Source of the DNA: Escherichia coli
GTDB taxonomy: Bacteria; Pseudomonadota; Gammaproteobacteria; Enterobacterales; Enterobacteriaceae
Strand: one strand, 5' to 3'
Assembly: GCF_045037415.1 (NCBI RefSeq)
Contig: NZ_CP173438.1
Length of the DNA stretch: 64,000 nucleotides
The position numbers are program-made. Positions 53,001 to 62,000 of this stretch are shown in pieces (position 1 is the stretch's first letter; every line of letters begins with the position of its first letter).

Positions 53001-56000
53001 CTGGTTGACGGCAAACCGATTTATACGCTCTACATCGCGCTTTCGATCGATTTTCATCTTCATTACATCAATGATTTGATGAATAAACTTATTATGACCG
53101 CATCGGTAATCAGCATCCTGATCGTCTTTATCGTGCTGTTGGCGGTACATAAAGGTCACGCGCCGATCCGCAGCGTCAGCCGTCAAATCCAGAATATCAC
53201 CTCGAAAGATCTCGACGTTCGCCTTGACCCGCAGACCGTGCCCATTGAGCTGGAACAGCTGGTACTGTCGTTCAACCATATGATCGAGCGTATTGAGGAT
53301 GTCTTTACCCGACAGTCCAATTTCTCAGCGGATATCGCCCACGAAATTCGCACACCTATTACTAATCTCATTACGCAAACGGAAATCGCCCTCAGCCAGT
53401 CGCGCAGCCAGAAGGAGCTGGAAGATGTGCTCTACTCTAATCTCGAAGAACTGACGCGAATGGCGAAAATGGTCAGCGATATGCTGTTTCTCGCTCAGGC
53501 CGATAACAACCAGCTAATCCCCGAAAAGAAAATGCTCAACCTGGCGGATGAAGTCGGCAAAGTGTTCGATTTTTTCGAGGCGTTAGCAGAAGATCGCGGC
53601 GTGGAGCTGCGGTTTGTTGGCGACGAGTGTCAGGTTGCGGGCGATCCGCTGATGCTGCGTCGGGCGTTAAGCAACCTGCTTTCTAATGCCCTGCGTTATA
53701 CGCCAACCGGAGAGACAATTGTTGTGCGCTGCCAGACGGTCGATCACCTGGTGCAAGTTACCGTCGAAAACCCCGGTACGCCCATTGCGCCCGAACACTT
53801 ACCGCGATTGTTTGACCGTTTCTACCGCGTTGATCCTTCCCGCCAGCGAAAAGGCGAAGGTAGCGGCATTGGCCTGGCGATAGTGAAATCGATTGTTGTC
53901 GCGCATAAAGGCACAGTTGCGGTAACGTCAGATGCTCGGGGGACAAGGTTTGTTATCATATTACCCGCTTAATCCTTCAGCAAACGGCAACTTTTATAAC
54001 CAGTGTAAAAATAACATGCCGCAATAGTAATACCTATTAATGATAAAAAGCTGTCACAATTCATAAAAAACCTTAATATACGCCACCCTAAACATAACCA
54101 GCGTTAATGTAAGGTTTTTGTGTGGACTGGCTTCTTGATGTTTTTGCTACCTGGCTCTACGGCTTAAAAGTAATCGCGATAACGTTAGCGGTCATTATGT
54201 TCATCAGCGGGCTGGACGATTTTTTTATTGATGTCGTCTACTGGGTACGCCGCATTAAACGCAAGTTGAGTGTTTATCGCCGCTACCCGCGAATGAGTTA
54301 CCGCGAACTGTATAAACCAGATGAAAAACCGTTAGCGATTATGGTTCCGGCGTGGAATGAAACGGGCGTCATCGGCAATATGGCCGAGCTGGCGGCGACC
54401 ACGCTCGACTACGAAAACTATCATATCTTTGTTGGCACCTACCCCAACGACCCCGATACTCAGCGTGATGTTGACGAAGTGTGCGCTCGCTTCCCGAACG
54501 TGCATAAGGTAGTCTGCGCGCGTCCTGGCCCCACCAGCAAAGCCGACTGTCTGAACAACGTGCTGGACGCCATCACCCAATTTGAACGTAGCGCCAATTT
54601 CGCTTTTGCTGGTTTTATTCTGCATGACGCCGAAGATGTGATTTCACCAATGGAATTGCGTCTGTTCAACTATCTGGTCGAGCGTAAAGATCTGATTCAG
54701 ATCCCAGTGTATCCGTTCGAACGCGAATGGACGCACTTCACCAGCATGACCTACATTGATGAGTTTTCAGAACTGCATGGCAAAGATGTTCCGGTGCGTG
54801 AAGCCCTCGCCGGACAGGTGCCCAGCGCAGGAGTCGGCACCTGTTTCAGCCGCCGCGCCGTGACCGCACTGTTAGCTGACGGTGACGGTATTGCTTTCGA
54901 CGTGCAGAGTCTGACTGAAGATTACGACATTGGCTTCCGCCTGAAAGAGAAAGGTATGACGGAAATTTTTGTCCGTTTTCCGGTGGTGGACGAAGCCAAA
55001 GAACGCGAGCAGCGTAAATTTTTACAGCATGCGCGGACGTCAAACATGATCTGTGTGCGCGAATATTTCCCCGATACCTTTTCGACTGCGGTTCGGCAAA
55101 AATCTCGCTGGATCATCGGCATTGTTTTCCAGGGCTTTAAAACCCACAAATGGACCTCCAGCCTGACGCTGAACTACTTTCTCTGGCGCGACCGCAAAGG
55201 GGCAATCAGTAACTTTGTCAGCTTCCTCGCGATGCTGGTGATGATCCAGCTTTTGCTGTTGCTGGCGTATGAAAGTTTGTGGCCCGATGCCTGGCATTTC
55301 CTTTCTATTTTCAGCGGCAGCGCATGGTTAATGACTCTGCTGTGGCTAAACTTTGGCTTGATGATTAACCGCATCGTGCAGCGGGTGATTTTCGTTACTG
55401 GCTACTACGGCCTGACGCAGGGGCTGCTATCTGTCCTGCGTCTTTTCTGGGGCAACCTGATTAACTTCATGGCCAACTGGCGCGCGTTAAAACAGGTACT
55501 TCAACACGGCGATCCACGTCGTGTCGCGTGGGATAAAACAACGCATGACTTCCCCAGCGTGACTGGCGATACCCGCTCGTTGCGTCCGTTAGGTCAAATC
55601 CTGCTGGAAAATCAGGTCATCACTGAAGAACAACTCGATACAGCACTGCGTAATCGCGTCGAAGGTCTACGCCTGGGCGGTTCAATGCTGATGCAGGGGC
55701 TGATTAGCGCCGAGCAACTGGCACAGGCGCTGGCAGAGCAAAACGGCGTGGCGTGGGAATCCATCGATGCCTGGCAGATCCCTTCCTCGCTGATTGCCGA
55801 AATGCCGGCCTCCGTGGCGTTGCATTATGCGGTACTGCCGCTGCGTCTGGACAATGATGAGTTAATTGTCGGCAGTGAAGATGGTATTGACCCGGTTTCG
55901 CTGGCGGCCCTGACGCGTAAAGTCGGACGCAAAGTGCGTTACGTCATTGTTCTGCGAGGACAAATTGTCACCGGATTACGCCACTGGTATGCACGCCGAC

Positions 56001-59000: not shown

Positions 59001-62000
59001 GCGGCGCAATATATCCGCCAGGATATTCAGGCGTGGACGGCAGATTATCGCGTCAGCTGGCATCAGAAGGTGGCGAACGGGCAGACTATTGAGCCTTATG
59101 CTCACGTTCAGGACAACGGCTATCGTGATAAAGGCACTCAGGGCGCGCAGCTTGGCGGTGTCGGGGTCCGCTGGAATATCTGGACCGGCGAGACGCACTA
59201 CGACGCCTGGCCGCACAAAGTCAGTCTCGGCGTCGAATATCAACATACCTTTAAGGCGATTAATCAACGTAACGGAGAGCGCAACAACGCGTTTCTCACC
59301 ATTGGAGTGCACTGGTAAATGCGTAAGTTCATTTTCGTATTGCTGACACTGCTTTTGGTCAGCCCTTTTTCCTTTGCGATGAAAGGTATTATCTGGCAAC
59401 CACAAAACCGTGATAGTCAGGTTACCGATACCCAGTGGCAGGGGCTGATGAGTCAGTTACGTTTGCAAGGCTTCGATACACTGGTTTTGCAATGGACCCG
59501 TTACGGCGATGCATTCACCCAGCCAGAACAGCGCGCGTTATTGTTTAAGCGTGCTACAGCTGCGCAACAGGCTGGCCTGAAGCTGATTGTCGGGCTGAAC
59601 GCCGATCCGGAATTTTTTATGCACCAGAAACAGTCGTCCGCAGCGCTGGAAAGCTATCTTAATCGCCTGCTGGCTGCCGATCTCCAGCAAGCCAGATTAT
59701 GGAGCGCCGTGCCTGGCGTAACGCCGGATGGCTGGTACATCAGCGCGGAAATTGACGACCTGAACTGGCGCAGCGAAGCCGCCCGTCAGCCTTTGCTAAC
59801 ATGGTTAAACAACGCGCAGCGGTTGATTAGCGATGTTTCAGCAAAACCGGTTTATATCAGTATTTTTTTCGCCGGAAACATGTCGCCAGATGGCTATCGC
59901 CAACTGCTGGAACAAGTTAAAGCAACCGGTGTTAATGTCTGGGTACAGGATGGCAGCGGCGTGGATAAACTGACCGCTGAACAGCGTGAACGTTATCTAC
60001 AGGCCAGCGCCGATTGCCAAAGTTCCGCCCCAGCAAGCGGCATTGTTTATGAACTGTTTGTCGCTGGTAAAGGTAAAACGTTTACAGCGAAACCGAAACC
60101 GGATGCAGAGATCGCCTCGCTGTTAGCGAAACGTTCCTCTTGCGGTAAAGACACGCTCTATTTCTCTCTGCGCTATTTGCCCGTCGCGCAGAGTATCCTT
60201 GAGTATTAATGATTAAAGGGAGCAACTTAGCTTGCTCCTTTCCTTTTCACTTTCCTAATCAAAATCCTGGCAAGATGAATTATTTAGCAGAATATCTGTT
60301 TTCATTTTATTCGTCTGACGTGTTCCAATTATTTAGCAAAACCGCGACAACAAAGTGATGGTGTAATTTGTAAAAGGGAACAAATAAATGGCTCGCCCTG
60401 CAGGATTCGAACCTGTAGCCCACGGCTTAGAAACTCCAGGAACGACATTTTAAGTCAACAAATTACCGCGCCATCTCTGCGTTCACACGTCCCACTACCT
60501 CAAAATATGTAAAACCTTGCAAGCCATTGCGAGGCCTTATGTGTCTCAGTTTTGTTCCTCTTTTTTATACTAAAAAACACAGCAATTGAGGATAAACCTC
60601 ATGCTATTATCGCTAATATGCATCTAAAGGCATGGCACTTGAATAGATAAAAACTCCACAAAGAAAAAAATAATTAGCCCATAAAACCACAATGCAAAAC
60701 ACAAACAGACAATTAAACTAAAAAACTGACAGTGCATTGTGACAAAAATTCAATGTTAAACAAAATATAAACAGTGGGGCAATATACAATTGACTCATTA
60801 AGTTAGATATAAAAAATACATACTCAATCATTAAAACGATTGAATGGAGACCTTTTATGCGGGCGAAACTTCTGGGAATAGTCCTGACAACCCCTATTGC
60901 GATCAGCTCTTTTGCTTCTACCGAGACTTTATCGTTTACTCCTGACAACATAAATGCGGACATTAGTCTTGGAACTCTGAGCGGAAAAACAAAAGAGCGT
61001 GTTTATCTGGCCGAAGAAGGAGGCCGAAAAGTCAGTCAACTTGACTGGAAATTCAATAACGCTGCAATTATTAAAGGGGCAATTAATTGGGATTTGATGC
61101 CCCAGATATCTATCGGGGCTGCTGGCTGGACAACACTCGGCAGCCGAGGTGGCAATATGGTCGATCAGGACTGGATGGATTCCAGTAACCCCGGAACCTG
61201 GACGGATGAAAGTAGACACCCTGATACACAACTCAATTATGCCAACGAATTTGATCTGAATATCAAAGGCTGGCTCCTCAACGAACCCAATTACCGCCTG
61301 GGACTCATGGCCGGATATCAGGAAAGCCGTTATAGCTTTACAGCCAGAGGTGGTTCCTATATCTACAGTTCTGAGGAGGGATTCAGAGATGATATCGGCT
61401 CCTTCCCGAATGGAGAAAGAGCAATCGGCTACAAACAACGTTTTAAAATGCCCTACATTGGCTTGACTGGAAGTTATCGTTATGAAGATTTTGAGCTAGG
61501 TGGCACATTTAAATACAGCGGCTGGGTGGAAGCATCTGATAACGATGAGCACTATGACCCAGGAAAAAGAATCACTTATCGCAGTAAAGTCAAAGACCAA
61601 AATTACTATTCTGTTGCAGTCAATGCAGGTTATTACGTAACACCTAACGCAAAAGTTTATATTGAAGGCGCATGGAATCGGGTTACGAATAAAAAAGGTA
61701 ATACTTCACTTTATGATCACAATGATAACACTTCAGACTACAGCAAAAATGGTGCAGGCATAGAAAACTATAACTTCATCACTACTGCTGGTCTTAAGTA
61801 CACCTTTTAACAACGTTAAATAGATTTTCTCCCCGGTGGTATTGTATAGCCCCGGGGAATTTGTTTACCGTTAAAAGCAAACAATATCCCCTAATCTTGT
61901 AAGCATTTAACCTGCGTCCTGGCGTGTAACCTCTTACCGCAACACAAGACTCAATATATTCAAATTCGTTATGCCGTGGCATCATTTAACCCCTTGTAAT

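Follow-up and report, generated by a model that had tools for sequence, protein, structure and literature searches.

The nfrB-nfrA-ybcH locus of an Escherichia coli genome: a very probable single transcription unit of the Nfr exopolysaccharide system with a conserved, non-essential accessory protein, YbcH, of predicted glycoside hydrolase-like fold

The closest described relative of the locus examined here is the Nfr system of Escherichia coli K-12 (Junkermeier and Hengge, 2021, and Sellner et al., 2021), where nfrBA-ybcH has been described as an operon with a 14-nt overlap, whose expression is FliA-dependent and post-exponential (Junkermeier and Hengge, 2021; PMC8669469). A fragment of the synthase, NfrB(414-745), binds cyclic di-GMP (c-di-GMP) specifically with a Kd of ~1 uM, and NfrB interacts with DgcJ (PMC8669469). 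Infection by phage N4 depends on the glycosyltransferase (GT) active-site residues D169, D267, and W330 of NfrB, with a W330A substitution abolishing function, and mutation of the MshEN residues L490, G491, and L537 indicates that these also matter for N4 infection (PMC8669469). WecB is needed while the rest of the enterobacterial common antigen pathway is not, which implies a polymer of N-acetylmannosamine (ManNAc) (PMC8669469). Sellner et al. (2021; PMC8669472) reached the same model independently and named the glycan NGR (N4 glycan receptor), with ybcH going unmentioned. In this model, the steps of which have been demonstrated experimentally in K-12, DgcJ supplies c-di-GMP locally, and its binding by the C-terminal MshEN-type module of NfrB activates polymerization; NfrB polymerizes a ManNAc-based glycan from UDP-ManNAc made by WecB; NfrA, a protein with a TPR region and a β-barrel, exports the glycan across the outer membrane; and phage N4 takes first the glycan and afterwards NfrA as its receptors. 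Among N4-like phages the Nfr glycan serves as a broad-host receptor; its chemical nature has so far only been inferred. Here, the nfrB, nfrA, and ybcH genes are analyzed in a 64,000-nt stretch of E. coli DNA (contig NZ_CP173438.1 of assembly GCF_045037415.1), referred to below as the window.

The three genes are plus-strand open reading frames (ORFs), found in the ORF list and its translations where an initial annotation of the window had placed them (Table 1). Their identities are borne out by RefSeq annotation and by NCBIfam equivalog models, the curated cut-offs of which are exceeded by all three proteins: 1332 bits for NfrB (NF008411, cut-off 1170), 1889 bits for NfrA (NF007302, cut-off 1223), and 515 bits for YbcH (PRK09936, cut-off 344). 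Although a mechanical ORF for nfrA begins at a TTG (56325), the annotated ATG at 56346 is preferred, as it aligns over positions 1-990 of the 990 in the NCBIfam model. The segment 54000-60300 (6.3 kb) is 100% identical to several complete E. coli genomes, in which the genes are annotated nfrB (also nrfB), nfrA, and ybcH; among 5426 complete genomes of the species, 5243 match it, 5046 of these over at least 80% of its length. Compared with K-12, the genes, their order, the 14-nt overlap, the domains, and the motifs are the same, and nfrB is ~98% identical in DNA to that of K-12 MG1655. The locus differs from that of K-12 in nothing of substance, being an allele of another E. coli lineage. Given this identity of nfrB, the allele in the window would be expected to bind c-di-GMP, to produce a ManNAc polymer, and to support N4 adsorption as its K-12 counterpart does.

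NfrB has two major regions: (i) a GT family 2 (GT2) synthase; and (ii) a C-terminal c-di-GMP receptor region. Pfam GT2 domains span residues 70-382 (Glyco_trans_2_3, E-value 2e-40), and the motif set of processive GT2 enzymes is complete, with DAED at 169, TED at 265, and QKSRW at 326-330. The RQKSRW signature noticed in the initial annotation was thus located within the synthase region, and its QKSRW portion is identical in six of six distant NfrB orthologues. The long C-terminal extension remarked on at the same time resolves, upon domain annotation, into a c-di-GMP_motif domain composed of two tandem 21-residue MshE-type motifs, in which L490, G491, and L537 are present, and an MshEN domain. 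With these domains beside the GT2 region, and with binding already published (PMC8669469), the designation of NfrB as a c-di-GMP-responsive glycosyltransferase stands. A third MshE-type motif-like segment, PLGKFLVTEGVISQETLDRVL, lies beyond the tandem pair near the C-terminus (residues 691-711; 56192-56254), within a stretch with a weak match to DUF4388/PatA_N; one metagenomic orthologue (locus L004, residue 677) has a similar segment. In NfrA, TPR families are matched as well as the NfrA_C barrel domain (residues 809-977, nt 58770-59276; Pfam E-value 9.7e-68).

These three genes very probably form one transcription unit of the E. coli Nfr system, a synthase-dependent exopolysaccharide (EPS) machine. 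The overlap of nfrB with the start of nfrA and the fused nfrA stop and ybcH start (TAAATG) were both described in the initial annotation, and both were found when the junctions were read, the former as 14 nt and the latter with no spacer. At each junction the stop and start codons overlap or abut, and a Shine-Dalgarno sequence lies inside the preceding gene; because of this arrangement of the codons, translational coupling of nfrB, nfrA, and ybcH may be inferred, and the view of the locus as a tightly coupled module agrees with the single published operon (PMC8669469). A scan of 53800-60900 found no sigma-70-like site at either internal junction. The strongest plus-strand terminator-like site in the same interval is a hairpin 3' of ybcH, the only position in the operon at which such a hairpin follows a gene, and it likely marks the operon end. 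What weighs against the single unit is the upstream region: the sigma-70 scan of the cusS-nfrB intergenic region (53973-54121) yielded no recognizable promoter, and the FliA (sigma-28) consensus TAAA-N15-GCCGATAA, with up to 3 mismatches allowed, has no plus-strand match there. The nearest sigma-28-like match (53480-53506) lies inside cusS and is no better than chance density. The promoter of the operon may therefore be non-canonical, or may lie inside cusS, or the FliA dependence may be indirect. An Rfam search of 53000-64000 returned no RNA element besides argU.

The association of the three genes extends well beyond E. coli, as a DUF4434 gene, the family to which YbcH belongs, lies directly 3' of nfrA in eight of nine distant loci from gamma- and beta-proteobacteria. 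Six of these loci were reached through YbcH homologues (38-51% identity), namely two of Rhodanobacter type (one of them Rhodanobacter terrae, the other sharing its gene layout), one of Pragia fontium, and three on metagenomic contigs; in all six the DUF4434 gene immediately follows an nfrB-nfrA pair of the same domain make-up, and the flanking genes are different each time. At six loci whose junction sequences were read, nfrA and ybcH are at most 8 nt apart or overlap by up to 4 nt, and nfrB and nfrA are at most 1 nt apart or overlap by up to 8 nt; a single nfrB/nfrA overlap of 49 nt is probably due to a mis-called start. Three further loci were found from NfrA_C matches. In Aeromonas veronii, nfrA and the DUF4434 gene overlap by 1 nt. 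In the reduced genome of Polynucleobacter necessarius (LT606948.1; locus L009, 2884-8217), an epimerase gene, nfrB, nfrA, and DUF4434 persist only as short ORF fragments, apparently degrading in concert. The third, the metagenomic locus L011, is itself fragmented and is the sole candidate nfrBA locus without DUF4434 that was found, in a search with the NfrA C-terminus that returned mostly gene fragments and was of limited use for finding such loci. Four of the loci (Rhodanobacter-type, metagenomic, and Polynucleobacter) carry a WecB-like UDP-GlcNAc 2-epimerase gene (Epimerase_2) directly upstream of nfrB, so that epimerase-nfrB-nfrA-DUF4434 is a self-contained four-gene cassette. The presence of a WecB-like epimerase gene beside nfrB provides independent genomic support for the ManNAc-polymer model. 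Two other neighborhoods were observed. In A. veronii (locus L010, 1-7684), the nfrA-DUF4434 pair is immediately upstream of pgaA-pgaB-pgaC, so that two synthase-dependent N-acetylhexosamine polymer systems adjoin, and in the metagenomic locus L004 a CBS-PAS-GGDEF-EAL gene abuts the nfr module.

YbcH consists of a single DUF4434 domain (Pfam, residues 21-290) preceded by a hydrophobic N-terminus. AlphaFold modelling from an alignment of 35 sequences (predicted local distance difference test, pLDDT, 92.1; predicted template modelling score, pTM, 0.89) gave a confident structure with eight β/α units, and fold comparison places this predicted (β/α)8 barrel closest to glycoside hydrolases (GH). Glu144 lies in the fourth strand (β4, residues 138-145) and Glu245 is the last residue of the seventh (β7, residues 241-245); neither varies in any of the 35 aligned sequences, and the same holds for Asp146, Asp147, and Arg285. 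In clan GH-A, the hallmark geometry is a carboxylate at the end of each of β4 and β7, and Glu144 and Glu245 are, by this model, candidate catalytic residues. The invariant Asp146-Asp147 pair prompts the speculation that a GH84-like Asp-Asp mechanism could operate instead. At the N-terminus, 34 of 35 homologues have Ala at position -1 of the predicted cleavage site, and all 35 have a small residue (A, S, T, V, or G) at position -3. The N-terminus thus resembles a standard cleavable Sec signal that fits signal peptidase I, and YbcH is probably a soluble protein. This reading, drawn from sequence, contradicts the published statement that YbcH is without a signal-peptidase site and stays membrane-anchored (PMC8669469).

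What YbcH contributes can be weighed from these features together with its genetics. It had been suggested in the initial annotation that YbcH is an obligate third component. As such, it would be a structural subunit without which there would be neither polysaccharide nor N4 adsorption. The tight TAA/ATG junction would fit this, as would the strictly kept synteny with nfrA (eight of nine loci) and the retention of ybcH in 96% of E. coli genomes. Yet a ybcH deletion leaves N4 plaque formation normal, the outcome that the initial annotation had itself named as speaking to the contrary, and relieves the EPS-dependent motility block only partly (PMC8669469); a 2025 droplet random-barcode transposon sequencing (RB-TnSeq) preprint assigns ybcH a "partial contribution," and reviews regard YbcH as auxiliary and "not essential for polysaccharide secretion." An obligate role is very improbable, and for N4 plaque formation in the laboratory it is already refuted. 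YbcH is a conserved, non-essential accessory subunit of the Nfr system, and the conserved synteny with nfrA argues that it is a genuine, selected one. Within E. coli, coverage of at least 80% is reached for ybcH in 5221 of 5426 genomes, for nfrA in 5135, and for nfrB in 5031 (about 93-96% each), so ybcH is not the preferentially lost gene of the three. As to what the accessory role is, all synthase-dependent EPS systems that are well studied carry a gene for a periplasmic glycosidase or lyase (BcsZ, PslG, PelA, the C-terminal domain of PgaB, AlgL), and loss of such an enzyme typically reduces or alters polymer output and does not abolish it. Because the partial phenotype of the ybcH deletion fits this pattern, and because of the geometry of Glu144 and Glu245, we favor, at somewhat better than an even chance, YbcH as a periplasmic glycan hydrolase. 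As a secreted (β/α)8 enzyme, YbcH would trim or clear the nascent polymer in the manner of BcsZ, PslG, PelA, and the C-terminal domain of PgaB, and its deletion would consequently be expected to give only partial phenotypes. The published alternative casts YbcH as a periplasmic protein without catalytic activity, a scaffold or glycan binder that would bridge NfrB and the TPR region of NfrA (PMC8669469; PMC10211494). Several observations stand with that proposal and against a hydrolase. No sequence match of YbcH to a CAZy or Pfam GH family was found; a Pfam scan of the 35 homologues at E-values up to 10 gave no GH family of note, with Cellulase (GH5) matched in 2 of 35 at an E-value of 0.04; and searches of the Protein Data Bank (PDB) with the YbcH sequence and with the 35-member profile gave no match at E-values up to 10. 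Foldseek matches are weak (template modelling, TM, scores of 0.4-0.5) and include triosephosphate isomerase (TIM) barrels that are not glycoside hydrolases. The residue before the β4 Glu is Ala, so the usual Asn-Glu motif of clan GH-A reads Ala-Glu; catalytically dead TIM-barrel lectins do exist; and the literature searched holds no biochemical data on hydrolysis of glycosidic bonds by YbcH. On the other hand, a scaffold does not readily explain acidic residues placed exactly at the ends of β4 and β7 and invariant in all 35 sequences, even at 38% identity; active glycosidases make up almost all of the nearest folds; and the conserved AxA-type site points to a soluble rather than a membrane-anchored protein. 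A scaffold is possible and appears doubtful on this balance. A more far-reaching version of the hydrolase proposal falls slightly short of an even chance: YbcH and DUF4434 would found a new GH family for the ManNAc-based N4 glycan receptor, acting as a soluble enzyme with the Glu144/Glu245 pair and tuning sensitivity to N4-like phages through glycan amount or chain length, and the "membrane-anchored scaffold" would be wrong on both counts. A dedicated YbcH hydrolase, if true, would offer a biochemical handle on the Nfr polymer through digestion, structure determination, and chain-length control.

A further reading concerns the neighborhood of the operon. The module lies, as pointed out initially, directly beside a prophage remnant: DNA resembling lambdoid phages extends from ~60386, just 177 nt past the ybcH stop, to ~63758. 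That proximity speaks for the idea that the adjacency has functional meaning, for example that the module was delivered by a phage or shares regulation with phage genes so as to modulate superinfection. Against it, the GC content of nfrBA-ybcH is core-like (52-56%, about 53%) vs. 38-45% in the island, and the island is bounded by a duplicate of the argU 3' end and by intact argU, as is classic for integration at a tRNA site. In E. coli PEC422, which has no prophage at the site, the gene order is ybcH-envY-argU; next to the homologous modules of Rhodanobacter, Pragia, Aeromonas, and metagenomes, the genes are unrelated and not of phage origin; and the operon has a terminator-like hairpin of its own. 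N4, moreover, is lytic, a schitovirus with no relationship to the lambdoid phages. The chance that the adjacency has functional meaning is close to negligible, and a bearing on N4 susceptibility was rejected on these grounds. The remnant sits beside nfr by ordinary tRNA-gene integration, because argU, an integration hot spot, is just downstream of the operon, and the adjacency is not conserved elsewhere. The remnant matches phages Turner, 2G7b, and ev243 at 87-91% coverage and ~94% identity, and its ompT is phage cargo: the block occurs, ~94% identical, in the intact phages 2G7b, ev243, and Turner. Compared with K-12, the region downstream of the operon differs in that envY is absent, here from the entire window, and in a shorter ompT-carrying remnant. 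The K-12 counterpart of the remnant is presumably DLP12.

Among natural E. coli, disruptions of the nfr locus recur. PEC422 (locus L008, NZ_CM168005.1, 6288-7050) has IS1 in place of nfrB except for its last 50 nt, and a rearranged fim/sfm region adjoins. Chimeric ORFs in other clusters join an insertion sequence (IS) transposase to NfrA_C, VgrG to NfrA_C, and an AraC-type helix-turn-helix (HTH) to DUF4434. Some 190 more genomes keep ybcH than nfrB at the 80% coverage threshold (5221 vs. 5031), an excess of nfrB loss that would fit a loss of the synthase driven by phages.

Table 1. Features of the nfrB-nfrA-ybcH locus and its surroundings (window positions, except for the last row, which gives positions within the loci named).
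Feature	Position	Strand	Basis
nfrB coding sequence (CDS), GTG start, 745 aa; inner-membrane processive GT2 synthase with C-terminal c-di-GMP receptor region	54122-56359	+	ORF, RefSeq, NCBIfam, Pfam
RQKSRW, NfrB aa 325-330; QxxRW motif of processive GT2 enzymes is Q326-W330	55094-55111	+	Motif search
Tandem MshE-type c-di-GMP-binding motifs, NfrB aa 489-540, PLGQILLENQVITEEQLDTAL and RLGGSMLMQGLISAEQLAQAL	55586-55741	+	NCBIfam NF053729 c-di-GMP_motif, 1.4e-18; regular expression
Pfam MshEN domain PF05157, NfrB aa 542-628	55745-56005	+	3.1e-14, 53 bits vs. cut-off 23
nfrB/nfrA overlap, 14 nt, ATGAAGGAGAATAA; GGAG 7 nt 5' of nfrA ATG	56346-56359	+	Junction sequence read
nfrA CDS, 990 aa; signal peptide, TPR region, C-terminal outer-membrane β-barrel	56346-59318	+	NCBIfam, Pfam
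nfrA/ybcH TAA/ATG stop-start junction, 0-nt spacer (TAA 59316-59318, ATG from 59319); GGAG 11 nt 5' of ybcH ATG	59316-59321	+	Junction sequence read
ybcH CDS, 296 aa; predicted Sec signal peptide (aa 1-20) and predicted DUF4434 (β/α)8 barrel	59319-60209	+	
YbcH predicted signal peptide, aa 1-20	59319-59378	+	-3/-1 rule across 35 homologues
Terminator-like hairpin, 10-bp stem, 6-nt loop (60216-60241), with T-rich tail; 7 nt past ybcH stop	60216-60251	+	Terminator scan
Lambdoid prophage remnant, 3.4 kb, outside the operon: ompT, S-adenosylmethionine (SAM) methyltransferase, tail-fibre-assembly and integrase pseudogenes	60387-63760	.	Phage homology, annotation
Duplicate of tRNA-Arg(UCU) 3' end, 44 nt, 40/44 identical to argU; att-type scar at prophage end	60389-60432	-	Alignment
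Intact tRNA-Arg(UCU) argU, integration site, next to integrase pseudogene	63763-63839	-	ARAGORN; Rfam tRNA, 72 bits
WecB-like Epimerase_2 genes upstream of nfrB	L002 1728-2840; L006 1721-2836; L007 1360-2493; L009 2884-3916		

Among the better known EPS machines, the cellulose system (BcsA/BcsB/BcsC/BcsZ) shares with Nfr a c-di-GMP-activated processive GT2 enzyme with a QxxRW motif and an outer-membrane exporter composed of TPR and β-barrel, and, if the proposal for YbcH holds, an operon-encoded periplasmic glycoside hydrolase that is not strictly required. Nfr differs from Bcs in its c-di-GMP receptor, which is of MshEN type in place of PilZ, in having no BcsB-like subunit, and in the use of UDP-ManNAc rather than UDP-Glc. 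BcsZ is a GH8 enzyme with an (α/α)6 barrel, in contrast to the predicted (β/α)8 barrel of YbcH. In the poly-N-acetylglucosamine (PNAG) system, PgaABCD, the PgaB protein is a lipoprotein that also contains a carbohydrate esterase family 4 (CE4) deacetylase domain, whereas YbcH is a single-domain protein, and no sequence similarity between the two is detectable. BT_0435 (PDB 4h41), an uncharacterized TIM barrel annotated as a "putative alpha-L-fucosidase," is 15% identical to YbcH with no relationship detectable by hidden Markov models (HMM), and it gives no functional transfer to YbcH. In relation to the K-12 system itself, the operon, the coupling at the junctions, the domains of NfrB, and the phenotype of the ybcH deletion are already known and were published in 2021. 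Added here are the synteny of DUF4434, the GH-like barrel predicted for YbcH with its invariant Glu pair, and the explanation of the prophage adjacency by argU. A glycoside hydrolase-like and probably soluble YbcH is the only forward-looking element among these and would refine the published model modestly and in a testable way; if YbcH is indeed a hydrolase, it would complete the parallel of Nfr with the Bcs, Pga, Pel, Psl, and alginate systems.

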